Part shown: piece by piece, positions 1-16,408 of the stretch | Position numbering within the stretch: position 1 is the stretch's first letter | Layout: each line of letters opens with the position of its first letter | NCBI RefSeq assembly: GCF_036917535.1 | Contig: NZ_JBALDA010000031.1 | Location: forward strand, 1,242-65,241 | DNA length: 64,000 bases | Direction: 5' to 3' | From: Nostoc sp. | GTDB taxonomy: Bacteria; Cyanobacteriota; Cyanobacteriia; Cyanobacteriales; Nostocaceae | Notes under the pieces: generated by a model | What the model saw: the letters and a program-made list of their open reading frames with translations, nothing else | The model's database searches: none | What the model was told of the DNA's origin: nothing | Position numbers and translations under genes: made by a program

Positions 1-112
1 TGTTTTCCGCAAGTAAAATCAACTTTGACTTTCTCAAAATGCCTTATGACTTATTCATTTTGGTGTTTTCCGCAAGTAAAATCAACTTTGACTTTCTCAA
101 ACCCCAGTTTGC
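1..112 (+). repeat. 21-bp-module tandem repeat (63-bp period), same family as 38085-38289
   Basis: tgttttccgcaagtaaaatcaactttgactttctcaaa occurs at 1-38 and 64-101. Confidence 0.85.
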
Positions 113-261
113 TTTCTCATTTCAGTAGTTAGCGCATTCATGACAACGATCGCTATGTAGCAAAAACTATTGCAGATTTGCCGGAATTCTCTCAAGCTGA
201 TCTATACGGAAATTTTTTAAGGTAAAGAATATTAACCGTACTAGATTACAAGGTGTAGATC

Positions 262-684
262 ATAGCTCGGAGAAAAAGAACTTCTGTAGTATTAGAAAAA
301 GCAGTGCGCCGTGCGGCTAGCATAAACTCAATTGATCCGAGGTTAGATTTAGGCAATGGACTTACCTTACCTGCTTTCTCAACTCTGATCGAGACGATGC
401 GATCTAAAGAAAATGCTTACAATAGTGCCCTTTCCAGCTTGGATAAGTTGTATCGGGAAATGCTAGAAACAGAAAGCGAGTTGGGAGATATGACAGAACA
501 AATGCTAATGGCCGTTGGAACTCGATATGGCAAAAGCAGTATAGAGTACGGCATGGCAGGGGGAGTTCCTAAAAATCAGCGTCGTAAGGGACAGCGAGAA
601 AAGTCACCAATCAATAATGAGCAACCGTCATTCGTTGCCAGTATGGAGAGCAACAATGGAAAGAAACCAGCAGCAACAACTTAA
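262..684 (+). CDS. Conserved-looking hypothetical helical protein; the frame is open back to ATA at 262 (ORF track starts at GTG 304)
   Basis: Frame reads ata gct cgg aga aaa aga act tct gta gta tta gaa aaa gca gtg, with a TAG at 256-258 upstream; IDPRLDLGNGLT and YGMAGG motifs. Confidence 0.65.
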   Translation: MARRKRTSVVLEKAVRRAASINSIDPRLDLGNGLTLPAFSTLIETMRSKENAYNSALSSLDKLYREMLETESELGDMTEQMLMAVGTRYGKSSIEYGMAGGVPKNQRRKGQREKSPINNEQPSFVASMESNNGKKPAATT

Positions 685-1183
685 TATATGCTATTCTACA
701 CAAAATTTTTTCAAGCAAAAATGATTGCATAGACGCATTCGCAAAGCGTCTGGTAGATATCGCTCTCCGTAAGAAAGAGACGTAGCACTGCTACGTCTCT
801 ACTACAACTAAATTTGCATCAGATAAACTTTTATAAAGACTTGATCCTTTCTACGCCGCTGATTTTTGTGTCAACACCTTACGGATTTAAAATAGTTATC
901 AAAATATGGCGGCTATAACTGCGATCGCTAATCTTGTAAATTAGGGAGCCACTGCATTGTTATTCTCAATTAATATCACCTGCTTTGCTTGCCGTTATCA
1001 AATTATTGTTTAACAAATTTCTAGTGCGATCGTTGCTCTTGTAGATTGGGTTGACGGTAAAAAGCATCGACTTGCAAAAGTCAATTTTCTGAAAATGAAA
1101 CCAGAGATGAATACAGATAAACATTGATAATTTATCTATATCCATCTATGATTGTCTGCTTGTGATACCTGGGAATTAAACGA

Positions 1184-2773
1184 TTAGACTTGTTGTATTT
1201 CTGGACTACCATCTTCAACCACAAATGAAGCCCGCTTACTAATTGTGCCAAATGGAGTTGTGACGTTTGATAAAACTAGATAGTCTGTTTTGCAGGTTGT
1301 AGGAGTCAGCGCACAGCGAACATACCCTCGTTGACTGTTGAAGAACTTAATGTGCGGGTTATCGGGTAAGTAAGCTTCAACATTTGGGGTGGTATCTGCC
1401 CCATCGCCACCAGAGGTTATTGAAGTACAGACGAATTCACTCCCGACTGTAGCAGATTCTGGATTATTAAAGTCAGCCTTTAAATTCATTGCCCAGTTGG
1501 AATGGATATCGCCTGATAAGACGATTGGATTAAATGGTTTGCGCTGTTCTAAGAAACGCATGAGGCGATCGCGGGAAGCCACATAACCATCCCACTTATC
1601 CATGCTATAGGTTCCGCCTTTCCCTGGTTTCATGTCTATCTGAGCAACTACAACTTGCTGGGCTAAAACGTTCCACTTAGCCTGTGAGCTATTTAAACCA
1701 TCATATAGCCAATTTTCCTGACGCTTGCCAGTAATCGTTGCATTCGGATCTAAATTTTCTGGGCAACGTTCTTTAGTACCATCACCACATGGCTGATCGG
1801 TGCGATATTGGCGGGTATCTAGGACATGGAAGGTGGCTAAGTTACCAAAGGAGAGCCGACGGAAAAGTTGCATATCGGCGCCAACAGGACGCGAGAAGGG
1901 GCGCAGTGGCATGTGTTCGTAGTAAGCTTGATAGGCAGCAGCCCGCCGTTGGCGGAAGATTGCCCGATTCTGGTCTGGTTCAGTATCGACTTCCGAGATG
2001 TCGTTGGCATAGTTGTTTTCCACTTCATGGTCATCCCAGGTAACAATCCAGGGAAACGCTGCATGAGCTGCTTGCAGATTGGAATCAGTTTTATAGAGGG
2101 CGTGACGGTTGCGGTAATCTTCCAAAGTCACAATTTCTGCACTGTTATGCTGTCTGGGGCGATTTTTTGAAATTCCTCCTTCATAGATGTAGTCGCCAAC
2201 ATGCACTACTAAGCTGAGGTCGTCCTGGGCAAGATATTTGTAAGCAGTATAGTAGCCCTGCTCATAGTTCTGACAAGAGACAAGGGCAAAGTTTAATTTA
2301 TTTAAATAGCCACCTGCTAGAGGAGCTGTACGAGTGCGGCCAATGGGGCTAGCATCTTGACCGACAATAAACCGATACCAGTACCAACTATCAGATTGCA
2401 GTCCCTCTACCACAACTCGAACTGAGTGAGCTAGTTGTGGAGTTGCAAGTACCGTACCTCTGGAGACAATACGCTTCATATCGGGATCAGTAGCCATTTC
2501 CCAGCGAATTGGCACATTAGCAGATGGCATTCCACCTCCGTTTAGGGGTTCGGGAGCTAGACGAGTCCAAATCACTACGCTGGTAGGATAGGGGTCACCT
2601 GACGCTACACCCAAAGTGAAAGGATAATTAGAAAATCTGCTTCTAGCAATCGCTCGTTGATGAGAAAATTGGTTAGCGATCGCCAAACCAGACAATGCTC
2701 CTGCCCCGATAATTAAGTTGCGTCGTTTGATTCGACTGTGTAGGAACTGCTCAAAATTCCGGTAATCTACCAT
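1184..2773 (-). CDS. phoD: Alkaline phosphatase D family protein with Tat-type signal
   Basis: RR leader; FTLGVASGDP, VHVGDYIYE, TWDDHEVENN, LDTRQYR and LSGDIHS motifs. Confidence 0.92.
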   Translation of the reverse strand: MVDYRNFEQFLHSRIKRRNLIIGAGALSGLAIANQFSHQRAIARSRFSNYPFTLGVASGDPYPTSVVIWTRLAPEPLNGGGMPSANVPIRWEMATDPDMKRIVSRGTVLATPQLAHSVRVVVEGLQSDSWYWYRFIVGQDASPIGRTRTAPLAGGYLNKLNFALVSCQNYEQGYYTAYKYLAQDDLSLVVHVGDYIYEGGISKNRPRQHNSAEIVTLEDYRNRHALYKTDSNLQAAHAAFPWIVTWDDHEVENNYANDISEVDTEPDQNRAIFRQRRAAAYQAYYEHMPLRPFSRPVGADMQLFRRLSFGNLATFHVLDTRQYRTDQPCGDGTKERCPENLDPNATITGKRQENWLYDGLNSSQAKWNVLAQQVVVAQIDMKPGKGGTYSMDKWDGYVASRDRLMRFLEQRKPFNPIVLSGDIHSNWAMNLKADFNNPESATVGSEFVCTSITSGGDGADTTPNVEAYLPDNPHIKFFNSQRGYVRCALTPTTCKTDYLVLSNVTTPFGTISKRASFVVEDGSPEIQQV

Positions 2774-2956
2774 TTTCTACTCCTGACTAACAGGTAAGTT
2801 AAAACGCAGCAACAGCTAACATGAAGAAGGCAGGGTGGTCTTAGGCAAACTTCGTAACTAACTCCCTTACCAAAATCAGGTTTTAATTCCCAATTTTTTC
2901 TTCTGGCATCAATGTATTAGATGTTGTTTTGCCAGATAAAAGCATATTACTAAAAG

Positions 2957-2997
2957 ATTAATCCTTGGCAAAGAAAGCGTTAATATCAACTTAACCA
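2957..2997. promoter_or_regulatory. Possible Pho box (SphR-type) upstream of phoD
   Basis: ATTAATCC (2957), GTTAATAT (2979) and CTTAACCA (2990) lie in 11-bp phase and resemble the PyTTAAPyPy consensus. Confidence 0.35.
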
Positions 2998-3000
2998 AGA

Positions 3001-3591
3001 TTAGATTTTAATCTTTTTCATTGATGCTACTTTTTTCTTAATTATCCAACCAAAACTACAAGCAAAGAGAGCGTCAACTAAAGGTGTAGGTTCAGGTACT
3101 TGTGTATAGGAAACTCTACCTGATATGGGTTTAGCATCTGGAGAAGTGCTAGAGAAAATTGTCAAATCCTCACCAATGATTTCGTAACTTATAGAACTGG
3201 AAGGATTAGATTTATCGTTGAACAGATAGTCTAATGCTAAAGATGTTTGTCCGGTTGAGAACGTAGTTGGAAATACTAGGGGAAATTCTGGATATTTAGT
3301 ATCATCTTTTTCAGTGTAAACGGTAGAGTCACCGTCAAATTTGAAAGAGAGTGACTTAATGGTGGCTACGGGATTATCTTCTTTACTGAAAGTTGAGTCA
3401 TCAAAGCTAAAAAAGCCATTTCCCTTAGTTACGGGACTATCAACTGTGAAAGCGTAATTAATAATTGCAGCAGATACAGATTTGGCTTCTACAGTAGCAA
3501 AACTTAAAGTCAAAGTAGCAGCAGCAAGCACTAATTGTGGAACAAATTTCATCTCAGTTTTCCTCACCATAAACTTCTGTAAGTAATGCAC
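3001..3591 (-). CDS. PEP-CTERM sorting domain protein (likely start 3552)
   Basis: N-terminal signal-like hydrophobic stretch; C-terminal VPEP, hydrophobic segment and basic tail (IIKKK). Confidence 0.85.
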   Translation of the reverse strand: MHYLQKFMVRKTEMKFVPQLVLAAATLTLSFATVEAKSVSAAIINYAFTVDSPVTKGNGFFSFDDSTFSKEDNPVATIKSLSFKFDGDSTVYTEKDDTKYPEFPLVFPTTFSTGQTSLALDYLFNDKSNPSSSISYEIIGEDLTIFSSTSPDAKPISGRVSYTQVPEPTPLVDALFACSFGWIIKKKVASMKKIKI

Positions 3592-3975
3592 AATGCAAGG
3601 TATATAAATAGTTTGTTTCTAATTGGCTGATTTCCCAAACGGGTATTCATCACTGATTAGAACAGTGATGAAAATCAATGCTTTTTCCCTTTTTGAGAAA
3701 AAGAAACTAGTCTCCAAATAATTGAAGTCGCCCTATTTTAGAATCATGAGTTTAAGGAGACTTTAATTAGAGGTAAAATAAAATTGCGAATAAAAGAGTT
3801 AGCAGTTAACTAAAACATTTATATTGAACTGGGGACTGGAGAACAGGTGGCGCTCTCTGGGGATAAGGGGTAATTGGGACTGGTTGTACTAGGAATTAGA
3901 AAGATGAGTATATAGATTCATATCTCACCCTAAATGCTGCGTAATCATACTACTGATTGAAATACGGAATGTGGA

Positions 3976-4860
3976 TTATAGAGATTTTATCCGTTCTACG
4001 CCGCCCCATATTTCAAAAAACCGTTTAGTTTCAGCTTCTATCTCTGAAATTGTTCTTGGCTGTCCATTTCCAGAACCCGGAAAAATAATATAAACGATAT
4101 CCTTGGAAATTCCTCGCCTGACTCTTGATTGTACTAATGGATCGTTTCCAACAGCCTGAGACAAAGCTATTGAACCCTCTCCAATCTGGGTTTTAGGGCC
4201 AACATCAGCATAAATTGCAAAAGCGAGTTTTTCGTTATTAGTGTTGTAAACAACTGCAAAATCTCCTAATTTAACGCCTGTAGCCTTTCTAAAATCATTA
4301 TTTCCCGAAAGAACAATATACGGAATCTTTGTTGAATCAACATAGCGACGTGGATCTTGTTTAACAAATCCAGAGTCAAATAATGCAGTCGTAGAAATAT
4401 AGTATCCAGGATATGGATCGGTACTGCCTTGAATAAATGGATTGCCGTTTTTATCTACAGCTAGTGCCCACCAGTTATCCGAATACCCAGCATTTGCCAA
4501 AAAATCAATCCCTGTATCTGCGGGGTGATAAGCATTAGGCGCACCATCAGCATTAATGCTCATACCTGCCTCATAGAAAAATGTAGATTCTCCATTTGCC
4601 TGGAAAATAGAAATTTCACCAATTTTAAGAATAGTCTTGATAGAAAATTTTGTGACTGGACTAAGAAATTTTTGAGCTACAAAACCTTCTAAAGTTTTGC
4701 CTTCAAGAATAGTTGCCACCTTCCACCACTTGTCATTATCCGAATGTTTAATTTTAGTGACAATATATCCTTTTGGAAGAGATGCTATTTGATTAACTTC
4801 GTCAACAATCGGTACTGAACGTATATTTAAACTATCTGAGATTACTTGAAATTGCTGCAT
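3976..4860 (-). CDS. SH3-domain plus glycoside hydrolase family 75 (chitosanase-like) protein
   Basis: N-terminal LNIRS...WWKV...GFV SH3b-like region; NADGAP, YVDSTKIPYIVL, ADVGP and GEGSIAL GH75-like motifs. Confidence 0.7.
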   Translation of the reverse strand: MQQFQVISDSLNIRSVPIVDEVNQIASLPKGYIVTKIKHSDNDKWWKVATILEGKTLEGFVAQKFLSPVTKFSIKTILKIGEISIFQANGESTFFYEAGMSINADGAPNAYHPADTGIDFLANAGYSDNWWALAVDKNGNPFIQGSTDPYPGYYISTTALFDSGFVKQDPRRYVDSTKIPYIVLSGNNDFRKATGVKLGDFAVVYNTNNEKLAFAIYADVGPKTQIGEGSIALSQAVGNDPLVQSRVRRGISKDIVYIIFPGSGNGQPRTISEIEAETKRFFEIWGGVERIKSL

Positions 4861-5283
4861 AAATTACTCCAAATTTAAAAGTTGAAATTATGAAAATATA
4901 TTAAGAAAGCCAAATTTTGTGCTGATGCTATTGCTAATATCTAGTCTCAAATTCTGATTTTTCGATGTCGCGCCAGCTGCTACAATAGAGAGTCAGTCAG
5001 TTAGGCGGGTAATACCTAATTTTTCTAGAAGGAAGCAAGGCAATACAAAAGAACGAACCCCCGCAATCCACGCCACATCTAGATATCACTTACTAAATCG
5101 CTGGATTTAGATCCCCGACTTCTTCAAGAAGTTGCGAATCTAGGCAGCAATTTTTGCTTAAAAAGTAGCATTCCACCTTACAGCCACCTTTGACTTGAAA
5201 AAAAATTTAAACAAAGGTGAGTAAGTGAACATCTTGGGAACTATAGAAGCAAATCAAATTAGCACAACTTTCAGCTTCCAGCA

Positions 5284-7473
5284 ATGAAGACTCACTATCT
5301 CAGCAAAGCTAAGGCGTTGCCATTACAGATTGTTCTTATTGTTCCCTTTGTGATTCAAATTTTTGCAGCGGTCAGTTTAGTGGGTTATTTGTCCTTTAAA
5401 AATGGACAAAGAGCAGTTAATGACCTGGCAGAACAGTTGATAGATCGTAACAGGAACGTAGTGGACGAACACCTCAAGTCTTATCTTTCTGTTCCGCAAA
5501 CCCTGAATCAGATCAACGCAGATGCTATCCACAGGGGAATATTAAATGTGCGCGATCGCCAAACCCTTGGCAAGTATTTCTGGGATCAGATGCACGCCTA
5601 TGACTTGACTTATATTGGTATTGGATTAACGACAGGTGAGGGGCTGGGTGCAGCTCGTTATGATGGCAAGACAATCACTATTGATGATTGGACTGCCAAG
5701 CCTCCCAATAATGTTTACACTTACGCTACTAACGATCAAGGCGATCGAACTCAAATCAATGCTCGGTGGGATTGGAAAAATTCTCAGGAATCTTGGTATA
5801 CCCAACCGATCGCTGCTGGTAAACCTATTTGGGCAAAGATTGTAAGTGGAAATTATCCCACCGGTCCCTACATTGCTGCTTCTGCGAGTCGTCCGATTTA
5901 TGATTCGCAAAATCGCTTGCTGGGAATGATTGCCTGCGATATTCATCTCCTGAAACTAGGCGATTTTTTACGCAATTTGGATATTAGTCAGTCTGGGCGG
6001 GTGTTCCTTTTAGAACGTGATGGCACATTAATCGCTACTTCCGGCACTGAAAAGCCCTTTACCTTCGTTAATCAAAAGGTTAAAAGATTGCAGGCGAGCG
6101 ACAGTTCTGACCCAATAATACAGAAGGTTGTTAGACACCTACAAACTTTTAAAGAGTTTGACTCCATCACCCAAGACACAGATTTTCAACTTGAAATACA
6201 AGGAAAACGGCATTTTGTCGATGTTGTACCTTGGCGTGACAAATATGGCTTGGATTGGTTGCTGGTGGTGAGTGTGCCAGAAAACACATTCATGGCACAA
6301 ATTAACGCTAACACGCAGACCACGCTCGCCCTTTGTTTGGGCGCATTAGTCATTGCCTCAGTGATGGGTGTGTTTACCTCCCATTGGATTGTACGCCCGA
6401 TTCTGCGCCTGAATCGGGCAAGTAAGGCAATGGCATCTGGCAATTTAAATCAGACAGTAAAAACTAGCAGTATTCGAGAACTTAATACCCTGTCTAACTC
6501 TTTCAACTACATGGCAGGACAACTACATGAATCGTTTACGGCTTTAGAGAAAAGCAAGGAAGAACTAGAAGATCGAGTAGAAGAACGTACCACTGAACTT
6601 AAAAATACATTAGAGGAATTGCAACGCACTCAATCTCAAATTATTCAAAGTGAAAAAATGTCTAGCCTGGGACAACTAGTTGCTGGAGTCGCACACGAAA
6701 TTAATAATCCAGTCAACTTTATTCATGGCAACCTCGCCCATGTGCAGGAATATACCCAGGATTTATTAGCACTTATGCAGTTGTATCAGCAATATAATCC
6801 CTACCCTGTTGCTGAAATTCAAACTGTTGCTGAAGACATCGATCTGGAGTTTTTGCAGTCAGACTTGCCAAAATTATTGTCTTCTATGAAAGTAGGCACC
6901 GATCGCATTCGTCAAATTGTACTGTCGCTGCGAAATTTCTCTCGCATCGATGAAGCGGAATTAAAAAGCGTCAATATTCATGAAGGCATCGACAGTACTT
7001 TGATGATTTTGCAGCACCGCCTCAAAGGTAAACCAGAACAACCTGAAATTGAGGTGATTAAAGACTACGACAATGTACCCCCAGTAGAATGCTATGCCGG
7101 ACAACTTAATCAGGTATTTATGAATATTTTAGTAAATGCGATTGATGCGTTAGAAGAAAATAATACCAAGCGTACTTATCAGGAAATCAAGGACAATCCC
7201 AGTCAAATTAAGATTCGCACATCGGTAGTTAATTCAATGTGGTTAGAAGTAGCGATCGCTGATAACGGAGTTGGTATTTCTAAAGAATTTCAGCAACGAA
7301 TATTCGATCCCTTTTTCACCACTAAACCCATTGGCAAAGGAACCGGAATGGGTATGTCCATCAGCTACCAAATCGTCACAGAAAAACATAATGGTAAACT
7401 GGAGTGTTTCTCAACTCCTGGAAAAGGAACCGAGTTTATCATTCAGATTCCCCTGTGGCTAAGGAATGGTTGA
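5284..7473 (+). CDS. Membrane sensor histidine kinase (Cache-like periplasmic domain, HAMP, HisKA, HATPase)
   Basis: Two TM segments; GVAHEINNP H-box; QVFMNILVNA N-box; DNGVG and FFTTKPIGKGTGMG. Confidence 0.92.
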   Translation: MKTHYLSKAKALPLQIVLIVPFVIQIFAAVSLVGYLSFKNGQRAVNDLAEQLIDRNRNVVDEHLKSYLSVPQTLNQINADAIHRGILNVRDRQTLGKYFWDQMHAYDLTYIGIGLTTGEGLGAARYDGKTITIDDWTAKPPNNVYTYATNDQGDRTQINARWDWKNSQESWYTQPIAAGKPIWAKIVSGNYPTGPYIAASASRPIYDSQNRLLGMIACDIHLLKLGDFLRNLDISQSGRVFLLERDGTLIATSGTEKPFTFVNQKVKRLQASDSSDPIIQKVVRHLQTFKEFDSITQDTDFQLEIQGKRHFVDVVPWRDKYGLDWLLVVSVPENTFMAQINANTQTTLALCLGALVIASVMGVFTSHWIVRPILRLNRASKAMASGNLNQTVKTSSIRELNTLSNSFNYMAGQLHESFTALEKSKEELEDRVEERTTELKNTLEELQRTQSQIIQSEKMSSLGQLVAGVAHEINNPVNFIHGNLAHVQEYTQDLLALMQLYQQYNPYPVAEIQTVAEDIDLEFLQSDLPKLLSSMKVGTDRIRQIVLSLRNFSRIDEAELKSVNIHEGIDSTLMILQHRLKGKPEQPEIEVIKDYDNVPPVECYAGQLNQVFMNILVNAIDALEENNTKRTYQEIKDNPSQIKIRTSVVNSMWLEVAIADNGVGISKEFQQRIFDPFFTTKPIGKGTGMGMSISYQIVTEKHNGKLECFSTPGKGTEFIIQIPLWLRNG

Positions 7474-7683
7474 ACTATAAATTATGGCTGAGGCTTGCGG
7501 GAAAAGGAAGATATAAAGAATTTTAGATTATACAGCAGATTTCAATTTGAGGAAGCTGTACTTCATTAACTTGTAAAGTGCTGTTAGTAACAATACTTTT
7601 GCTAATTTACGAAGCTTAAACAATGATTTGCGGTTTAGGGCGTAACAGGTTATGACAGTTGAACAGATTTAAAATCAGTAGTC

Positions 7684-8349
7684 GTGTTTGTTAAAAAATT
7701 TATGCAGATAAATCAGGTGATTGAAACTTACGATCGAGGAGCAGTGGATTATGACGCAATTATGAAGCGTTACTGGCACATTGAACGCGAACCCTTAATT
7801 GCTTCCTTGCAGCTAAAACCAGGACAAACTGCCCTAGATGCTGCGGTAGGAACTGGTCTTAATCTTCCAGCCTATCCTGAAAGTGTACGTGTCGTCGGTG
7901 TCGATCTTTCTGAGAAGATGATAGATGAAGCACGTAAAAAGCCCGTATCCGCAGACATCACTTTCAAGGTATCGGATCTCTGCAATCTTGATTTTTCTGA
8001 TAATAGCTTTGATGCAGCAGCGTCGGGATTTACCCTGTGTGTAGTTGAAGATCCAGTCCGCGCTCTTGCAGAGATCCTGCGAGTTACTAAGCCTGGTGCC
8101 TTGATTGCCATTCTCGATTACTGCAAATCACAAGATCCAGAGATTAAGAAATGGCAAGAATTAATATCTGATAGTACTTCACAGCTAGGTTTTCCGACTG
8201 GCAAGATCAAGTGGGATGCATTGATGGATTATAACAAATTGATTTATAATAGCAAGCTTCCCATTGAAGTGCTTGCGGACGATCGCACAGACAGTCCAAA
8301 TCCGTTTTTATGTGGTTGTCAATTACTGCTTAAAAATTCAAAAAGTTAA
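7684..8349 (+). CDS. Class I SAM-dependent methyltransferase (likely start 7702)
   Basis: LDAAVGTG motif I; GVDLSEKM; RVTKPGA. Confidence 0.85.
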   Translation: MFVKKFMQINQVIETYDRGAVDYDAIMKRYWHIEREPLIASLQLKPGQTALDAAVGTGLNLPAYPESVRVVGVDLSEKMIDEARKKPVSADITFKVSDLCNLDFSDNSFDAAASGFTLCVVEDPVRALAEILRVTKPGALIAILDYCKSQDPEIKKWQELISDSTSQLGFPTGKIKWDALMDYNKLIYNSKLPIEVLADDRTDSPNPFLCGCQLLLKNSKS

Positions 8350-8467
8350 AAGCAATAGGATCAATAGACCTCTTGCACATATACAAAATTCGCCCACCCT
8401 GCGGGGTCTTGCTACATCTCCCAACCTCTTCTCCCAATTTGGGGAGAAGGGGAGCCAAATTCAAAAT

Positions 8468-8572
8468 CGGCGTTGCAGAACAGTGGGATGAATTGGGGCA
8501 AGCAGGGGAGGCAGGGGAAGCAAGGGGAGAATTTTGGAAGTTACTAAATCATCCCGCAACTATGCAACGCCC
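8468..8572. mobile_element. 105-bp MITE-like element inserted in a REP-like palindromic repeat
   Basis: Imperfect ~27-bp terminal inverted repeats (cggcgttgca...gggatga / tcatccc...tgcaacgccc); AAAAT duplicated at 8463-8467 and 8573-8577. Confidence 0.7.
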
Positions 8573-8671
8573 AAAATCCCTCTGCCAAGCTTGGCAGAGG
8601 GATTTTGGGTGAGGGCTTTTGATTCATCCAAGAAGTCCAATGAGTGCGATCGCAGTATGTGCGTTAGAGTT

Positions 8672-9469
8672 TTACAGGTAGTTTTGAAACAGTTCTAAAA
8701 CATGTTGCCAAGCATCAGGAGCCGCTTCTGGGTTATAACTTGGGTGCTGGGCTAAAAATGGGTATTGGTCTTTGAAGAATCCGGCGAAGAATCCGTGTCC
8801 AGCGTCGTATCGAAATACACGATGATTTATTTGATGTTTTTGGAGTTCTGCTTCAATTTGCTCGTTTTCTTCCTGGGAAACTAATGCATCTCTTGTACCA
8901 AAAAATGCATAAATAGTACCTTTAATTTCTGAAGTACGATTAATAGTTGGAGTATCTTCACCATAACTAGCAGTGGTAATCCCACCACCATAAAACGAAG
9001 CCGTTGCTTTGATATCCGGTAAAGTTGCAGCCATATAAGCAACATGACCACCAAAACAAAAACCAATGACACCGAGGGCATCATCTTTGACATTAGGTAA
9101 AGTTTTGAGGTAAATAATGGTAGCTTGAATATCACTGAATATCTCTTGATATTTTACTTGTTGATAATATTCCAAGCCCAGCCGATAGGCTTCTGGACTA
9201 TAGCCAATATCTTCAGGGCTAAAATCAGCCTCAAAACCGGGAGCAATACGTTGATACATCGCTGGAGCGATCGCTATATATCCTTGTTTAGCAATTAGTT
9301 CGGTGATATCTCGAATATTACTATTAATTCCAAAAATTTCTGGAAAAACTATAACTGCGCCAAAGCTTCCCTTTTGTGATGGTTGAGCTAAATAAGCACC
9401 GATTTCTAAATTATTGTTAGGTACTTTGACATAACAAGTGTTAATTTCGATATTTGTTGTTTCTAGCAT
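8672..9469 (-). CDS. Dienelactone hydrolase family protein
   Basis: EIFG, GFCFGG nucleophile elbow, SFYG and AGHGF motifs. Confidence 0.9.
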   Translation of the reverse strand: MLETTNIEINTCYVKVPNNNLEIGAYLAQPSQKGSFGAVIVFPEIFGINSNIRDITELIAKQGYIAIAPAMYQRIAPGFEADFSPEDIGYSPEAYRLGLEYYQQVKYQEIFSDIQATIIYLKTLPNVKDDALGVIGFCFGGHVAYMAATLPDIKATASFYGGGITTASYGEDTPTINRTSEIKGTIYAFFGTRDALVSQEENEQIEAELQKHQINHRVFRYDAGHGFFAGFFKDQYPFLAQHPSYNPEAAPDAWQHVLELFQNYL

Positions 9470-9753
9470 CTTTGTTTCGACGGAGTTTATAGCAATTCAT
9501 CTATTCTGACTGTTTTTTAACACCAATGGGCGATGACTACTATAGGCAGAAACACCAAAGTGTTGTTCTGCTCAATAAAGAGAAATTGCTTACCTCAAGT
9601 ATGACTTTACTGTGATGAGTAAATCGGATGAATTTCTAACTTTTGAATAAAATGCCATCTCAAACTTCTGGAAGATCCCAAGGGTTTTTGATTTGTGCGA
9701 CCTTACATAAAGTAAGCATAAAAACTCTAAACTAATAATCACAACAAAAAACG

Positions 9754-10293
9754 ATGCCCGATCAAAGTTTTAGAACAGACGTTCCAGAAATTGACTCAAC
9801 GGAGATTGAAGATAATCGAGCTGCGATCGCCGAAGAACATCGCTCCTTCCTGGAAAAAGTTCAGGTCAAAGGCGGATTTGCAGATCCCTATGATGCAAGG
9901 GATTTTACTGAAGTTGTGTTTCGCGTAATGCGCGACGTGATGACCACAGAAGCCAGCGATCGCGTCGAGGCAGAACTGCATACAGAGGCTGTACCTACTG
10001 ATGAGAAAGCACTCCAGTTTGAAGTGTCCGATCTCTGGAAAGACACCAATCCAATTGTGGGACTTTTGAGCCGGGTTCGTCCACCCTGGAAAGGCTCAGG
10101 TATCTTTAATATCGATTCCGATCGCTTCCTGTTCCGAGTTGCTAATGAAAGCGGAATGCCGCGATCGGTTGATCGAGAACAAGCGGTTAAAGCAGTCTTT
10201 TCTGCCACCAAAGACGAGCTTTCCGAAGAACGAATTCAGGAAATTGCTAGCTGGCTACCTGACTATGTACGTCAGCTTTGGGAGCAGGCTTAA
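9754..10293 (+). CDS. DUF2267-like protein
   Basis: FLEKVQ...VFRVMRD and AVKAVFSATK...EIASWLP patterns. Confidence 0.65.
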   Translation: MPDQSFRTDVPEIDSTEIEDNRAAIAEEHRSFLEKVQVKGGFADPYDARDFTEVVFRVMRDVMTTEASDRVEAELHTEAVPTDEKALQFEVSDLWKDTNPIVGLLSRVRPPWKGSGIFNIDSDRFLFRVANESGMPRSVDREQAVKAVFSATKDELSEERIQEIASWLPDYVRQLWEQA

Positions 10294-10316
10294 TTAGAAA
10301 GTTAAAAAAAGTCAAG

Positions 10317-10345
10317 CCTGTTTGTGAGTAACGCTCATAAACAGG
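10317..10345. terminator. Hairpin between convergent DUF2267 and xisI genes
   Basis: cctgtttgtgag / ctcataaacagg stem flanked by A and T runs. Confidence 0.55.
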
Positions 10346-10361
10346 TTTTCTATATATAAGT

Positions 10362-10700
10362 TTACCCGACAGCAAACTCTGTATACTGCCGTACATGAGG
10401 TGCATGATATGCTATCACAATATCTTGCTTAGGCACTCCCTCCCTCACAAGTTGATCTGCGCTCGCATCCTCCATTCCGTCATGCTGCACCCAAATTTTC
10501 CCATTCTTGATATCTATATGCAGCATACAGCCATAAATCCGGGTACTACTATCCTTCCATCCCACATGCACAAGCTGATAGTGGTCTTTTGTAGTATCAA
10601 AAATAGTTTGACTTTCTATTGGATCGCTTTCAGAACGCAACTTTGCTCGCGCTGTCAATAATCTCTGAATTAGTTCACGATATAATATTAGCTTATCCAT
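10362..10700 (-). CDS. xisI: XisI family protein
   Basis: MDKL..Y start; FD...DHYQLVHVGW, HIDIKNGKIWVQHDG and GVPKQDIVIAYH motifs. Confidence 0.9.
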   Translation of the reverse strand: MDKLILYRELIQRLLTARAKLRSESDPIESQTIFDTTKDHYQLVHVGWKDSSTRIYGCMLHIDIKNGKIWVQHDGMEDASADQLVREGVPKQDIVIAYHAPHVRQYTEFAVG

Positions 10701-11104
10701 TCTGCAATCTCCTGTTTTTCTGTGTCATACAACAAAGGGGGAATTTTGTTACGGACAATGACCGTTTGAATAAATAGATATCTGAAAAATCGCTTATAAA
10801 CGTCGAGCGGAACTGCCAAATACAACCGCCGCTCTGGATCATCATCTTCCAAAGCTATGCGGTAGTTAATAAATTGTCCAATAGCAGTATGGAACTCAGA
10901 AATCGTTGAGGGTGCCAAAAACGTTTTGATTTCAACTGCAATCTTTTCCTCATCCTTTATCGCTGCTAGCAACAGTTCTGCACCCAAGTCGATGTAAAAA
11001 TCAACAAACTCTAAATCAATGTGGTACGGATCATGAGTAATTATCCACCCTTCCTTCTCAAGGGCACTTCTAACCAGTTCATGAAACGTATCTCTTGCAG
11101 ACAT
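10688..11104 (-). CDS. xisH: XisH family protein
   Basis: MSARDTFHELVRSALEKEGW, YIDLGAE, IAVEIKTF, GQFINYR and LYLAVP motifs; overlaps xisI by 13 bp. Confidence 0.9.
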   Translation of the reverse strand: MSARDTFHELVRSALEKEGWIITHDPYHIDLEFVDFYIDLGAELLLAAIKDEEKIAVEIKTFLAPSTISEFHTAIGQFINYRIALEDDDPERRLYLAVPLDVYKRFFRYLFIQTVIVRNKIPPLLYDTEKQEIAEWIS

Positions 11105-11356
11105 CGTAGACAGCTAACCATAAAGATAAAGTCTTTGCCTAAATTCTATCGTGCATCCCACTAAAGCAGTAGCAGGCATACATACGTTCGGCTTTGTATA
11201 ACCTGAAGGGTATCGCGCAGTCGTTTTTTAGAAAAAAGAATTATATAGACGGCAGTATTATATCACCTCACAACCAAATCTGTGAGAAAATAATATTGTT
11301 ATCTTATAGCCAGTGCAATGCCAACGGTGGGCTACGATTTATGATTTCTACTAATT

Positions 11357-11959
11357 ATGCCTTATAGTCAGTTTACAACTATCAGTAAAGTTAAAGAAGC
11401 CTTCGGGTTAAAAACACAGGAGGGTGGGCGATTCATTCCTGCCACCGAACCCATTGAAGCATCTGCAACACTGACGGCATATCTTGAAGAAAGTCTGCCA
11501 CTAGCTTCTTCGTCAAGTGAAAAAGCTCGTTCTGAAGGAATAATTTACCCTGTATTATTAGAAGTTAGACGAATATTAAATCGCCAAATTAGCTTATTCT
11601 CAGGAGAAGATTTTACAGTCGATGAGGCAGTTGGACTGAATGGAATGTGTGATTTTCTTCTGAGTCGTTCGCCGGAAGTACTAGAAATTGAAGCGCCTGC
11701 AATTGTGATTGTGGAAGCAAAAAAAGCAGATTTAAGAACTGGATTTGGACAATGTATTGCAGAAATGGTTGCAGCACAAAAATTTAATGCTGCCAAAAAT
11801 CGTCCAGTTGCCGTAATCTATGGTTCTATTAGCAGTGGTACGCAATGGCGATTCCTGAAGTTGGAGGATAATCTTGTCACTATCGACTTGATCGATTATC
11901 CTCTTCCACCTGTAGAACAAATTCTCGGATTTTTTGTTTGGATGGTTAAAAACAGTTGA
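11357..11959 (+). CDS. Cyanobacterial PD-(D/E)XK-like hypothetical protein
   Basis: SEKARSE, G.CDFLLS, VEAKK, GQCIAEMVAAQ and ISSGTQWRFL motifs. Confidence 0.75.
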   Translation: MPYSQFTTISKVKEAFGLKTQEGGRFIPATEPIEASATLTAYLEESLPLASSSSEKARSEGIIYPVLLEVRRILNRQISLFSGEDFTVDEAVGLNGMCDFLLSRSPEVLEIEAPAIVIVEAKKADLRTGFGQCIAEMVAAQKFNAAKNRPVAVIYGSISSGTQWRFLKLEDNLVTIDLIDYPLPPVEQILGFFVWMVKNS

Positions 11960-12082
11960 TAGATGCGTTGCCTTTGGCGTAGCTCGCCGCAGGCATCGCA
12001 TTGCAGTATGATATTACCTCACAAACAAATCTGTGACAAAATAATATTGTTGTTTTATAGCCAATGCGATCGCCTAAGACCT

Positions 12083-12652
12083 ATGATTTCTACCATCTCG
12101 CGCCGCTACAGCTTGGATGAATATCGTGCGATCGAAGAAAAAGCCGAAGGACGCAGCGAATATCGAGATGGAGAAATTGTACCCATGCCTGGAGGAACCC
12201 TTAAACACAGCCGCATCGGTGGAAACATTTTTGCCTTTCTCAAGTTTCTGCTGCGCGATACTCAATTCGAGCCAATTAACAGCGATTTACGGCTGTGGAT
12301 TCCTGAACATCGACGCGGAGTATATCCAGATGTAATGGTTTTTGACGGCGAACCGCAACTAAATGCTGAACGTTTAGATGAAGTCTTGAATCCAACACTG
12401 ATTGTTGAAGTTTTATCTCCTTCCACCGCAGATTACGACCGACTGAGTAAATTTCGGATGTATCGCTCAATTGCAAGTTTTAGCGAATATTTATTAGTCG
12501 AGCAGGATGAACCTTTTGTGGAACGCTATAGTAAACAAGCTCAAGGTTGGTTGCTCAGTGATTTTAGCGGCTTAGAGTTATCTATTTCTTTGGATTCAGT
12601 TAGTATTGAATTGCCGATGGCGGAAATTTATCGCGGCATTGTTTTTGAGTAA
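12083..12652 (+). CDS. Uma2 family endonuclease (start at ATG 12083; the longer ORF runs through a repeat)
   Basis: SEYRDGEIVPMPGG, HSRI, YPDVMV, IVEVLSPST and EYLLVEQ motifs. Confidence 0.9.
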   Translation: MISTISRRYSLDEYRAIEEKAEGRSEYRDGEIVPMPGGTLKHSRIGGNIFAFLKFLLRDTQFEPINSDLRLWIPEHRRGVYPDVMVFDGEPQLNAERLDEVLNPTLIVEVLSPSTADYDRLSKFRMYRSIASFSEYLLVEQDEPFVERYSKQAQGWLLSDFSGLELSISLDSVSIELPMAEIYRGIVFE

Positions 12653-12812
12653 ATGAGTTTTGGTTGAATGTATTGTGCTTCGTAACAATGTATGCTTTGG
12701 AAGGGGTGCGATCACCCTTCTGATTTCAGTAGTTGAGCAAATTTATGTGCGGCAGCTTGGGAATTAAGCGGCAATCAAATATGATATCTTAAGGATGCGA
12801 TCATCATACTTA

Positions 12813-13427
12813 TTAGCTCATTTCATCTTCTAAAATATTTGATCGGGTCATCTTTAATCCCATTACCTCACGAGTATATTGCTGTCCCCATTCAGGACAC
12901 TTTAATTTCGGAGGTTTTCCGCTTAGTGTTTCCTCTACTTTTGCAAATATACAAGCGAGAGTTGCAGGGTTCATTCGACCTTCACCAAAGTGAATAGTTG
13001 CATTTTGCATCTCCTTCCAAAATAATTCCTTTAGTTGGTCTGCTTGTGATTCATTTAGTCCAATACCTATAAATGGTCGCCGTCCAAACATTTGCTCAAA
13101 CTCAAAGTAGCCACGAATTGACCAATATGAGTCATAGAAGGGTACACAAGTTGCACGAAGCCATATCCACATAAAATGTGGGTCAGCAACATTAGGAGCT
13201 TCTCGGTGACAACGACGGCACAGTAAAACGAGATTGGATGGAGTATCCAAACCTCCAAGGGAATCAGGAACTATGTGACATCGCTCAAGGCGTGACTGAT
13301 ATCCACAACGCCAACACCGCTTATAAGCATCTGACCAATCAATAGCAAGACCACTCTCGTCTTCGTGCCTTGCCCAATAGCGGACAATATCTTGCTGGGA
13401 AGTTTCAATAGGTTTTCGTTTTTTCAT
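12813..13427 (-). CDS. HNH endonuclease family protein
   Basis: CWRCG...ERCHIVP...GG...NLVLLCRRCH. Confidence 0.85.
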   Translation of the reverse strand: MKKRKPIETSQQDIVRYWARHEDESGLAIDWSDAYKRCWRCGYQSRLERCHIVPDSLGGLDTPSNLVLLCRRCHREAPNVADPHFMWIWLRATCVPFYDSYWSIRGYFEFEQMFGRRPFIGIGLNESQADQLKELFWKEMQNATIHFGEGRMNPATLACIFAKVEETLSGKPPKLKCPEWGQQYTREVMGLKMTRSNILEDEMS

Positions 13428-13784
13428 TTAACTAAAATTTGTTAAGTTTAACAGTAAAGTTAATAGTTATTTTGTACTATTTCAGATAATATGGCACATA
13501 CTCATCTATATAATTAACAGAACTAAATACTTTCTGTAATTTCAACGACTTGAAAATTTTTCTGTAAATCATGTTTGAACTGATTGCATGTTATTGTTGC
13601 ATCTGTAATGCTAATACTTCCACTACGCGAGCGCCTGGTAATTGCCGCTATAATCTTTACACTAGTTATTGCAGCAATAAATACCTAACTATTGAAAGCC
13701 AGATCAAATAGCCCTAAAACCCAAGCTGATCCAGTTTCGTTTCTATAGCCCTACTTTTTTAATTTAGATTTCTATCCAAAATAG

Positions 13785-14183
13785 CTATTCCCAGTCTTCA
13801 TACCTTAAGCCATCAATACGACTAAATTCACGGGTATTGTGGGTGACAAGGGTGAGGTTGTTTGCTAAGGCGATCGCAGCAATTAACAAATCATTTGCTC
13901 CAATTGGAGTCCCCAAAGCATTCAGACGAGCGCGAATATTTCCAGCTATTTTTGCAGCTTGACGATCCAATGGTAAATCAGCAAACTCAGCAAATAAATT
14001 TTCTATATGAGTGAGATTTCTATTAACGTTCGTGCTTTTGTAAGCTCCGTAATATAGTTCGCTATAAACAACCGTACAGATGTAAATTTCCCTAGAAGGA
14101 ATTAATAAAGTTTTTTGAGTAACAGGTGAACTTGGTGAATTTAGAATTTGGATACACGCATTTGTATCTAAGAGGTAGGCCAT
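13785..14183 (-). CDS. vapC: VapC family PIN-domain toxin
   Basis: LLDTNACI, ELYYG, PIGANDLLIAAIA and VTHNTREF motifs. Confidence 0.92.
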   Translation of the reverse strand: MAYLLDTNACIQILNSPSSPVTQKTLLIPSREIYICTVVYSELYYGAYKSTNVNRNLTHIENLFAEFADLPLDRQAAKIAGNIRARLNALGTPIGANDLLIAAIALANNLTLVTHNTREFSRIDGLRYEDWE

Positions 14184-14443
14184 TGAATCTCCTCCCGTTC
14201 TTCAAAAGGAAGCTGTTCTGGACGTTCAAGCGGCTCACCTTCCCAACTACCTATTACTTCTTCAACAAATTTCCGAGAGTATCCTAGTTCTTCCGGCATT
14301 TTGGTTGGAGACTGTGAAGATTTTGGCATAAGAGGTTGAAAGACAATCACTACATCTAATTCTTGATTGGCAACTTCAGGCGGAAGCTGGATTTGCAGAA
14401 TTCCATCATCACCAATATATGTTCTAATTTTAATGCTATCCAT
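14168..14443 (-). CDS. Probable VapB-type antitoxin
   Basis: Small acidic protein overlapping the vapC start; IGDDGILQIQLP and GSWEGEPLERPEQ. Confidence 0.7.
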   Translation of the reverse strand: MDSIKIRTYIGDDGILQIQLPPEVANQELDVVIVFQPLMPKSSQSPTKMPEELGYSRKFVEEVIGSWEGEPLERPEQLPFEEREEIQWPTS

Positions 14444-14486
14444 AACTGACCTCCAAGTTGATTATATTATCAGTATTTGGGCAAGT

Positions 14487-15788
14487 TTAACTTTGTGTAT
14501 AAACCATTTCCATTTTCAACTTTTCAATCTCCAACTTTAACTTATCATTCTCTATCCTCAATTTAGCATTCTCCTCCCTAATCAACTCAACTTCATTTCT
14601 CTTACTCAACGCCTGATTAATCGCCAACTTCCGCATGTCCAGCGAAAACCAACGCTGATAAGTTTGTGTGTGAACTTGCACACTATGCCCCAAATTATCC
14701 GCCGCCGCTTTAATTGGTATTCCTAGAATATGCGCCCGAATTGCCCAAGCATGACGTAAATCATAGGGTTTAAAATCCAATCCTATCTTGCGAAACCACC
14801 AACTAACTCGCTGTGTTAACGCTGTTATCTCAGCATGATTGGTGTTATCTTTTTTAGCGATCGCACTTCTCAACATCTCTAAATATTTAGGATTTCTCAA
14901 ATCAAACTCCTCAATCCATTGCCGATATAATGGTAGTGCTTGTCTCTCACCAGTCTTGCAATCCTGATGAACTTTCCATGTCAAATCTGTATTTTCTTGA
15001 CTTAACCACCAATCAATATCAGGATTAATAAACAGTTCCCTTGGACGTAAACCAAAAACGGCTAACATTCCATACGTCCAGCGCCAAAGTTGCCAGCTAT
15101 CTTGAACATTTTGATTAACTTGATTACCTCTACTATTAAGATGATCTTCAAACTTAATAATCCCTTCAGATATCTCCGTATCAGTCGGTATATTTCGGTA
15201 ACTATTCTCAGGCGTTTTGGAATATTTAGATAAATCGATTTCAATTTTGAATGTCAAGCAAAATGCAGCAATTGCTCTAGCTGCATTATACTTAGCCCAT
15301 TCTTTATCGATTCGTTCTATGGAACTTATCAAGTTCTCAGCATTAGCTAAATCTTGAGGATTTGTAAATCTTTTGGTTCGGGAAAAATAATAAAAAAAAG
15401 TATGCTCGCTTTTAGTTGTACGTTTATGAGTTTTAAAATACTCAGTTTCAAATTCTTTGAGTAATTCTCCTATTGTTTGAAATTCTTTTCTAATTGTTTC
15501 ATTTCCGAAATATTTATCATTCCATTCAAAAGTTTTACGAGCAATTAACTTTCCTAATTCATAGGCTTCTTCCTCAGCCGTCTTGAGTCCATCCAAATTA
15601 GCGGGAATACTCAAACTGAGATTGTATTGCTTTCTCCCAGTACCATTGCTATCTTTGTCTCCCGGTTTAATTGGTAACGTCGCCCGTAATTGCAGACTTC
15701 CATTCGATTCTCTAATTGTCACCTTTGCCTTTGCAGACTTCAAACGCAGATTAACCTTTTCTAATTCCAGTAGTACTTTCGTTTTCAT
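14487..15788 (-). CDS. xisA: Tyrosine site-specific recombinase, nifD element excisase
   Basis: GLRPRE (catalytic R), YDLRHAWAIR, LGHS and TYQRW motifs; N-terminus closely matches XisA as I recall it; position next to the nifD site. Confidence 0.95.
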   Translation of the reverse strand: MKTKVLLELEKVNLRLKSAKAKVTIRESNGSLQLRATLPIKPGDKDSNGTGRKQYNLSLSIPANLDGLKTAEEEAYELGKLIARKTFEWNDKYFGNETIRKEFQTIGELLKEFETEYFKTHKRTTKSEHTFFYYFSRTKRFTNPQDLANAENLISSIERIDKEWAKYNAARAIAAFCLTFKIEIDLSKYSKTPENSYRNIPTDTEISEGIIKFEDHLNSRGNQVNQNVQDSWQLWRWTYGMLAVFGLRPRELFINPDIDWWLSQENTDLTWKVHQDCKTGERQALPLYRQWIEEFDLRNPKYLEMLRSAIAKKDNTNHAEITALTQRVSWWFRKIGLDFKPYDLRHAWAIRAHILGIPIKAAADNLGHSVQVHTQTYQRWFSLDMRKLAINQALSKRNEVELIREENAKLRIENDKLKLEIEKLKMEMVYTQS

Positions 15789-15923
15789 CGTGCGTTCTTT
15801 GTTGCGGTGATTGCAGAGATGAACATAAACATCGGCTCAGAACAATATTTAGATGATGCGTGAGTCCTGAACCTGATTATGCATCGCTGTGTTTTTAGCC
15901 TATATTTAGCCTCAAAATAAATG

Positions 15924-15970
15924 TGTTATCGGCGAACAATGTTTATCTCTGACACTGTTTACTGCAAACA
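15924..15970. promoter_or_regulatory. Three phased TGT-N9-ACA boxes upstream of xisA (NtcA/VF1-type sites)
   Basis: tgttatcggcgaaca (15924), tgtttatctctgaca (15940) and tgtttactgcaaaca (15956), with an exact 16-bp period. Confidence 0.7.
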
Positions 15971-16002
15971 TTAGGCTGTTGAAAAGAATTAAACCACAAA
16001 AA

Positions 16003-16013
16003 GGATTACTCCG
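16003..16013 (+). other. 11-bp nifD element recombination site
   Basis: Exact GGATTACTCCG, the known XisA site, lying in nifD codons (W)DYSG. Confidence 0.93.
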
Positions 16014-16162
16014 GCCCTTATCACGGTTATGACGGCTTTGCCATTTTCGCTCGTGATATGGACTTGGCACTCAATAGCCCAACTTGGGGATTAATTGGCG
16101 CTCCTTGGAATGAAAAAGCTCAGGCTAAGAAGGCTGAAGCTAAGGTTAAGGCTGCCGTCTAG
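16004..16162 (+). CDS. nifD: 3' fragment of nitrogenase MoFe protein alpha chain, rejoined on excision
   Basis: [35 protein letters not shown]...stop; absent from the ORF track because it has no own start. Confidence 0.93.
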
Positions 16163-16408
16163 GGAAATGAGAAAGCGATAAGTAAGGATAACCTGGGGCT
16201 AAAACCCCAGGGGGGAGTTGGGAATCCAAAATTCAAAACTGAAAAATTAAAATTTCTTTTGATTTTTGCATTTTGAATTTTGAATCATATTCCCATCTCC
16301 CTAGTAGAGACGCGATTAATCACGTCTGTACCGGATTAATCGTGTCTCTTTTGCCTCAAATCCTTATTCCTTAATTAGTAAAGAATTCAGTAAGCTTGGA
16401 GATCCAAA

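Follow-up and report, generated by a model that had tools for sequence, protein, structure and literature searches.

An apparently ordinary XisA-type nifD interruption element split between two contigs of a draft Nostoc genome

The DNA considered here is a window of 64,000 nucleotides (nt) from a Nostoc genome (contig NZ_JBALDA010000031.1, hereafter C31, positions 1242–65241; the assembly has 113 contigs and 8.34 Mb), whose first 16 kb form the right-hand part of an element that interrupts nifD. The element is very probably a canonical XisA-type nifD interruption element of the common nt ~1355 variant, an ordinary member of a well-described kind. The original prediction, made on this window, had placed positions 1–16002 wholly inside a nifD excision element, having seen a single GGATTACTCCG site with xisA beside it. 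The placement holds: the window contains one such site, no second site and no 5′ nifD, and a search for the partner recovered both the left site and 5′ nifD on another contig, C63, so that neither finding named by the prediction as refuting it was made. The first reading is mainly corrected in that the missing left end is now located and the element proves ordinary in size and kind.

The right border and recombination core is the copy of GGATTACTCCG that opens a 3′ nifD stub in frame, with nifK following outside the element (Table 1). The 11-mer alone is not significant, since 0.66 matches with at most one mismatch are expected per window, and exact copies across the genome number five: the two borders and three unrelated sites. 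It is judged real because of its context, that is, the in-frame 3′ nifD stub, nifK and xisA. The left copy lies directly after LPFRQMHSWDYS of 5′ nifD, the ATG of which is at C63:117407, and the repeat begins at nifD nt 1353, matching the common variant with insertion at “position 1355 ± 2” (Hilton et al., PMC4874684). The same 11-mer borders the elements of 14 relatives. Joining the two NifD halves in silico, with the element and one repeat deleted, gives a full-length reading frame of 503 amino acids (aa) that is 97% identical over positions 1–503 to the uninterrupted NifD of two relatives (G013 and G067); both halves are open and 94–99% identical to those of relatives. Inspection of the 11-mer copies in this genome’s own assembly found neither a rejoined nifD nor a circle junction.

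The recombinase gene xisA lies at the nifK-proximal end in the orientation opposite to nifD, and the relatives’ orthologs occupy the same position, with 88–93% identity in 23 of 24 same-genus relatives. XisA has its catalytic residues R248 (GLRPRE), H346-x-x-R349 (RHAWAIR), H368 and Y377, and it matches a PHROG integrase (E = 7e-10). Three tandem TGT-N9-ACA boxes of the NtcA type, starting at 15924, 15940 and 15956, stand between xisA and the border in a segment that is gap-free in 14 relatives, with some box letters varying. We take these boxes to correspond to the VF1/BifA (NtcA) sites, also three in number, that PCC 7120 has upstream of xisA. On the paradigm of PCC 7120, XisA would recombine the two 11-bp repeats late in heterocyst differentiation, and excision would release the element as a non-replicating circle and restore nifD and the nifHDK operon. 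Vegetative cells would serve as the germ line in which the element stays integrated, and the cargo would be dispensable for the excision process. One indirect support for excision comes from the close relative G004, in which one contig (C109), ending near xisA, reads through the element’s right end, GGATTACTCCG and the left end, and then through an N gap to the chromosomal right junction. This is evidently an excised-circle junction caught in that assembly, the sequenced culture having held excised elements, and it points to excision at these 11-mer sites in this relative.

A separate observation at the borders concerns the heptamer TAGCCTA (reverse complement TAGGCTA), which occurs twice near the right border (window ~15865–15895) and once at the left border (C63:~118860–118875), where about 250 bp are conserved among relatives. 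The heptamers are invariant across relatives and could be candidate arm-type XisA binding sites.

It is scarcely credible that nifD is permanently broken and the element a prophage or a remnant in decay that can no longer move. Its many nuclease and toxin–antitoxin genes and the insertion sequence (IS) it carries could be taken for signs of decay, and a phage origin has been mentioned as a hypothesis (Hilton et al., PMC4874684), but xisA is an intact gene that keeps every catalytic residue, the two 11-mers match exactly, the nifD halves are open and close to those of relatives, and a circle junction is present in the assembly of G004. Ten proteins were scanned against PHROGs (XisA, the HNH protein, the Alr1449-family protein described below and 7 unannotated ones); only the integrase and HNH matched, and none proved to be a phage structural, packaging or replication protein.

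With the canonical XisA-type element as the preferred reading, its length depends on how two contigs are joined. The part on C63 measures 8,070 bp and the part on C31, before the right repeat, 17,243 bp, and the two contigs very likely join through one IS copy. The last 95 nt of C63 also occur, reversed, on C44, and the first 95 nt of C31 occur, reversed, on C88 and C93; the two 95-mers represent opposite ends, left and right, of a single ~1,182-bp IS, and their orientation matches. The IS has the terminal inverted repeat CAGAAATGTTGAAT and encodes a 351-aa open reading frame (ORF) called transposase-like outside any family-model scan. Intact copies exist in many relatives (for instance, G020:C1:4572818–4573999). 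In this assembly the IS is collapsed, with its ends at C63:126745–126839 and C31:1–95, and no copy is complete; apart from the contig ends named above, it has left only a diverged right-end fragment, on C103. The genome has at least three copies. The best estimate of the element’s length is 8,070 + ~992 + 17,243 + 11 bp, or ~26.3 kb. The “at least 16 kb” given by the original prediction was therefore correct but low.

Several points weigh against this reading of the element and its length. The two halves are on separate contigs, so that the matching of IS ends, together with synteny, is the basis for cis linkage, direct orientation and exact length. The IS copy at C63/C31 has no target-site duplication, perhaps because IS copies recombined at this variable spot. 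The assembly has three right IS ends (C31, C88 and C93) and two left ones (C63 and C44). Finally, XisA scores 20.7 bits against Pfam Phage_integrase, the gathering cut-off of which is 27.1, and the XisA family may be distant from the model.

An element much larger than 26 kb, in which C63 would join C88, for example, with further contigs between the nifD halves, is unlikely. It would accommodate the surplus of right IS ends and the missing duplication at C63/C31, and elements of 48–58 kb do exist (relatives here; PMC8461463). However, the IS ends of C44 and C93 already pair through a 9-bp target duplication, AATTATCCC; C88, which seems to end close to an rRNA gene, carries ORFs of housekeeping type (by eye hisH, rsmD and Tab2); and C44, C88 and C93 have no similarity to the element of any of the 17 relatives. 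The element of G070 contains homologs of both flanks, that of C63 and that of C31, with 1.8 kb between them, and gene order over the break point is collinear in all relatives. On duplication pairing, ORF content and element comparison, C88, C93 and C44 were rejected as alternative neighbours of the element contigs, and the single-IS join of C63 to C31 is retained. Just left of the window start, C31 also has a ~63-bp unit (AAAATCAACTTTGACTTTCTCAAAATGCCTTATGACTTATTCATTTTGGTGTTTTCCG…; L002 ~1130–1330) repeated in tandem three or four times; many genomes of the genus have this unit scattered about, often within their nifD elements. Tandem Repeats Finder detected no tandem arrays in window positions 1–16500.

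The ~26.3-kb size is ordinary for the genus. Exact element lengths in 14 relatives range from 18,179 to 48,578 bp, and nifD elements in the literature span 4–58 kb (PMC8461463; PMC4874684). The sizes quoted in the original prediction for comparison (~11 kb in PCC 7120 and ~24 kb in N. punctiforme) agree with the 11,289 bp and 23,723 bp of Table 2 of PMC8461463, and the element of relative G020 measures 23,723 bp, equal to the published N. punctiforme value. Nearly all of the 61 genomes surveyed in the genus have nifD split at aa 457; in G013, a complete single-contig genome, nifD is continuous, and both an xisA ortholog and an Alr1449-family gene are missing. In about 16 of the 61, a second interruption was observed at aa ~307 (for instance, G021:C1:5135323–5143593), and a search of relatives for XisA showed it to be accompanied by an XisA paralog ~49% identical. 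The present genome has the aa-457 element only.

The closest known system is the element of N. punctiforme PCC 73102 (Hilton, Meeks & Zehr 2016, PMC4874684), which corresponds to G020 and has the same insertion point, the same 11-bp repeat, the same three TGT-N9-ACA boxes and, at the same end and in the same orientation, a xisA that is 90% identical. The two share the Alr1449-family protein (95%), tRNA-CAU, TraX, GH75, the kinase, the methyltransferase, the hydrolase and DUF2267. The element here is ~2.6 kb longer and has, beyond this set, HigBA, DUF433/DUF5615, DUF2891, the IS, HNH, a PIN pair and the insertion of a phoD/PEP-CTERM-like module; in N. punctiforme that module is at 1.6 Mb, far from nifD at 0.5 Mb. 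The 11-kb element of PCC 7120 (Golden 1985; Lammers 1986, 1990; as cited in PMC1079853 and PMC4874684) likewise has an 11-bp direct repeat, a nifK-proximal XisA and NtcA-type sites upstream of xisA, whereas the element here is about 2.4 times larger and its accessory cargo is mostly different. The cyp110 P450 gene, a cargo gene of PCC 7120, was not found among the ORFs scanned here. A precedent for DNA that is inserted in the element and found outside it in other strains is the 58-kb nifD element of Nostoc 2RC with its 18.4-kb secondary insertion (PMC8461463). The 2RC insert is a mobile unit with its own integrase, whereas the insert here, 3.1 kb long and bordered by a 28-bp duplication, is a chromosomal module of two genes that lacks a mobility gene.

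Table 1. Features of the nifD element, with the adjoining right flank. Positions refer to the window unless a contig is named; fractions are the relatives’ elements, out of 17, in which the gene was found.
Feature	Position	Strand	Remarks
Right-hand 16 kb of nifD element	1–16002		continues left via C31:1–1241, the collapsed ~1.18-kb IS and C63:118770–126839
126-aa hypothetical protein	304–684	+	10/17; 19 tblastn matches in genome (E ≤ 1e-8, including self)
3.1-kb lineage-specific insertion (phoD and PEP-CTERM-like gene)	858–3975		flanked by ~28-bp imperfect direct repeat
PhoD-family alkaline phosphatase	1184–2773	-	twin-arginine leader RIKRRNLII; only ortholog of its type in genome
Secreted ~190-aa protein, PEP-CTERM-like tail	3001–3591	-	by eye
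SH3 + GH75-like (chitosanase-type) protein	3976–4860	-	Pfam; 10/17; single copy in genome
Orphan sensor histidine kinase, dCache-HAMP-HisKA-HATPase	5284–7473	+	Pfam; 15/17
S-adenosylmethionine (SAM)-dependent methyltransferase	7684–8349	+	Pfam; 11/17
Dienelactone hydrolase family protein	8672–9469	-	Pfam; 15/17
DUF2267 protein	9754–10293	+	Pfam; 16/17; single copy in genome
XisI + XisH pair	10362–11104	-	XisI 10362–10700; XisH 10688–11104
PD-(D/E)xK nuclease-like 200-aa gene + Uma2 nuclease-like gene	11357–12652	+	11357–11959; 11963–12652
Variable slot adjoining xisA	12813–14443	-	HNH endonuclease 12813–13427; PIN toxin 13785–14183; 91-aa antitoxin-like ORF 14168–14443
xisA, tyrosine recombinase, 433 aa	14487–15788	-	215 bp inside right border
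Three tandem TGT-N9-ACA (NtcA-type) boxes	15924–15970		16 bp apart; between xisA and border
Right 11-bp direct repeat GGATTACTCCG	16003–16013	+	left copy at C63:118759–118769
3′ nifD fragment, last ~50 codons + stop	16003–16162	+	stop at 16162
nifK	16409–17944	+	flanking gene, outside element
192-aa Alr1449-family protein (PF27270)	C63:123558–124133	-	L001 15556–16134

Cargo was assigned with Pfam, NCBIfam and PADLOC, and its distribution was taken from a tblastn matrix against 17 relatives’ elements. The cargo that the original prediction had named from the letters is confirmed by Pfam for PhoD (402 bits), GH75 with SH3, the Cache-HAMP-HisKA-HATPase kinase, the SAM methyltransferase and the dienelactone hydrolase. 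Besides the genes of Table 1, the C31 part holds a 246-aa unknown ORF, and the C63 part carries two unknown ORFs, a HigB/HigA-like pair, a DUF433 and DUF5615 (PIN-like) pair, a PD-(D/E)xK nuclease-like gene, a tRNA (CAU), TraX and DUF2891. XisA and the Alr1449-family protein are found in 17/17 relatives’ elements, XisI in 10/17, TraX in 11/17 and the toxin–antitoxin genes in 2–5/17; PhoD, the PEP-CTERM-like protein, HNH and a 73-aa ORF are found in 0/17. The matrix thus reproduces the published statement that the universal cargo consists only of xisA and one small hypothetical protein (PMC8461463). The stretch adjoining xisA (window ~12,700–14,480) has no counterpart in most relatives. The genome has 14–16 xisH/xisI loci, with paralogs 50–57% identical, and the pair on the element, being one of these, therefore gives no evidence for a role in nifD excision. 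Sole genomic copies on the element are phoD, GH75, DUF2267, TraX and the Alr1449-family gene, to which the methyltransferase may be added apart from a 34%-identical paralog. The cargo is a mosaic in which a conserved core of tRNA-CAU, TraX, DUF2267, the sensor kinase, the hydrolase and the Alr1449-family protein is surrounded by swappable selfish genes (toxin–antitoxin pairs, nucleases and the IS) and by occasional captured chromosomal genes.

The tRNA with a CAU anticodon (C63:123280–123352, minus strand), the only Rfam match, adjoins the Alr1449-family gene and is kept at ≥90% identity in 13/17 relatives’ elements; the genome has four other CAU tRNAs, which by eye include initiator-like, elongator-like and tRNA-Ile2-like ones. 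The Alr1449-family protein is 72–90% identical across cyanobacteria, including the non-heterocystous Leptolyngbya and Phormidesmis, and in three Leptolyngbya-type genomes examined its gene has an ordinary chromosomal context. The tRNA and the Alr1449-family gene were also considered as an ancestral chromosomal block, which was rejected because the two are not adjacent in those three genomes. Within the genus the gene is single-copy in 58 of the 61 genomes. It lies inside the element interval in all 17 fetched elements and in the other genomes that have 5′ nifD on the same contig. The Pfam name Alr1449 (PF27270) follows the locus-tag style of PCC 7120, and alr1449 is presumably inside that strain’s nifD element. 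An AlphaFold model (pLDDT 84, pTM 0.81) has Foldseek matches to PsbP, CyanoP, PsbP-like NDH subunits and Mog1 (E ~1e-6, TM-scores 0.55–0.63), and the protein is predicted to have a PsbP/Mog1-type fold, which is a generic fold. A sequence search of the PDB gave nothing meaningful for the family, and a literature search for alr1449 found no paper.

The elements of the relatives examined are otherwise collinear with this one but lack window 858–3975, the insertion that carries phoD and the PEP-CTERM-like gene. The ~28-bp imperfect direct repeat at the ends of the insertion (about 832–860 and 3975–4004) covers the 3′ end of the GH75 gene and is single-copy in G045. PhoD has Pfam matches to PhoD and PhoD_N (113.5 bits) and a Tat leader containing RRNLII; against the NCBIfam equivalog it scores 715 bits, the cut-off being 1000, and it is thus a PhoD-family protein and not the named equivalog. 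The genome has only one other PhoD-like gene, which is 31% identical. The neighbouring product, called a PEP-CTERM protein in the original prediction, keeps that name only in part: by eye it has an N-terminal signal peptide and a C-terminal VPEP-hydrophobic-KKK tail (VPEP...LFACSFGWII-KKK), but neither Pfam nor NCBIfam gave a match within the E-value limits used.

In about 40 of the 61 genomes, the two-gene module occupies a chromosomal site, at 82–93% DNA identity, which is distant from nifD in complete genomes or on a separate contig in drafts. Where its flanks were fetched (G058 and G020), it adjoins a gene read by eye as aroA-like. In the present genome the aroA-like gene is at C15:94969–96327 with no module beside it. 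G004 alone shares the insertion, at 95% identity and full length inside its own element, and has no chromosomal copy either. From these comparisons, the insertion is a relocation, or a duplication followed by loss, that occurred in a common ancestor or via a shared element. No MITE (miniature inverted-repeat transposable element) or IS ends were found at the insertion ends, the terminal 166 and 191 bp being unique sequence, and its GC content is 41.1% against 39.9% for the rest of the element. Hilton et al. had described the elements as dynamic, with gene insertions and deletions (PMC4874684). The original prediction’s suggestion of a gene-capture platform thus stands in a weak sense that is already in the literature, the evidence being the mosaic cargo and this datable insertion of a chromosomal module.

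Ahead of 5′ nifD on C63 lie nifB, fdxN, nifS, nifU, glbN and nifH, of which fdxN and glbN were scanned and the others named by ORF size and order only. A 129-aa ferredoxin ORF (on C63; L001 4629–5018) between the nifB-like and nifS-like ORFs shows fdxN to be apparently uninterrupted; therefore, the genome probably has no fdxN element. The cyanoglobin gene glbN (on C63; L001 7642–7998) is just upstream of the 297-aa ORF taken as nifH, and N. punctiforme has the same placement (PMC8461463).

The original prediction had also raised the possibility that excision acts as a heterocyst-specific dosage or regulation switch for cargo such as phoD and the kinase. That it does so, and that the element is kept for that reason, is quite improbable. 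The sole genomic copies riding on the element and the conservation of the cargo core across the genus speak for it. Conversely, no sequence feature ties cargo expression to excision, heterocysts are terminal, non-dividing cells, and the variable cargo is mostly selfish (toxin–antitoxin genes, nucleases and the IS). According to work cited in PMC4874684, Nostoc strains that carry the nifD element and strains that lack it are equal in growth and N2 fixation; strain FSR is element-free and grows and fixes N2 (PMC8461463); G013 lacks both the element and the Alr1449 gene entirely; and in about 40 relatives phoD has an ordinary place in the chromosome. The only related experiment concerns the CYP110 of the PCC 7120 element, which was seen in vegetative cells and not in heterocysts (PMC1079853), a result that agrees with the switch idea though it was never linked to excision; the idea is therefore old, not new. 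A broader form, in which the element would be the sole home of genes that are chromosomal elsewhere (the Alr1449-family gene, and phoD in this lineage) and excision a developmental switch for cargo and nifD together, is very improbable. If it were true, excision would uncouple cargo genes from the chromosome in heterocysts and change their expression; for instance, a photosystem- or NDH-related factor could be silenced in cells that are shutting down O2 evolution.

The element, then, is best taken as a canonical nifD element. It is split at an IS in a draft assembly, and automated annotation of the genome would miss the nifD rearrangement. Its one universal cargo gene besides xisA, that of the Alr1449 family, is a defined target for asking if the element does anything for its host. 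The phoD/PEP-CTERM-like insertion offers a clean, datable example in which a developmentally excised element has captured the sole copy of a conserved chromosomal gene pair, with a site identifiable beside the module’s usual neighbour gene, where the pair is missing in this genome.

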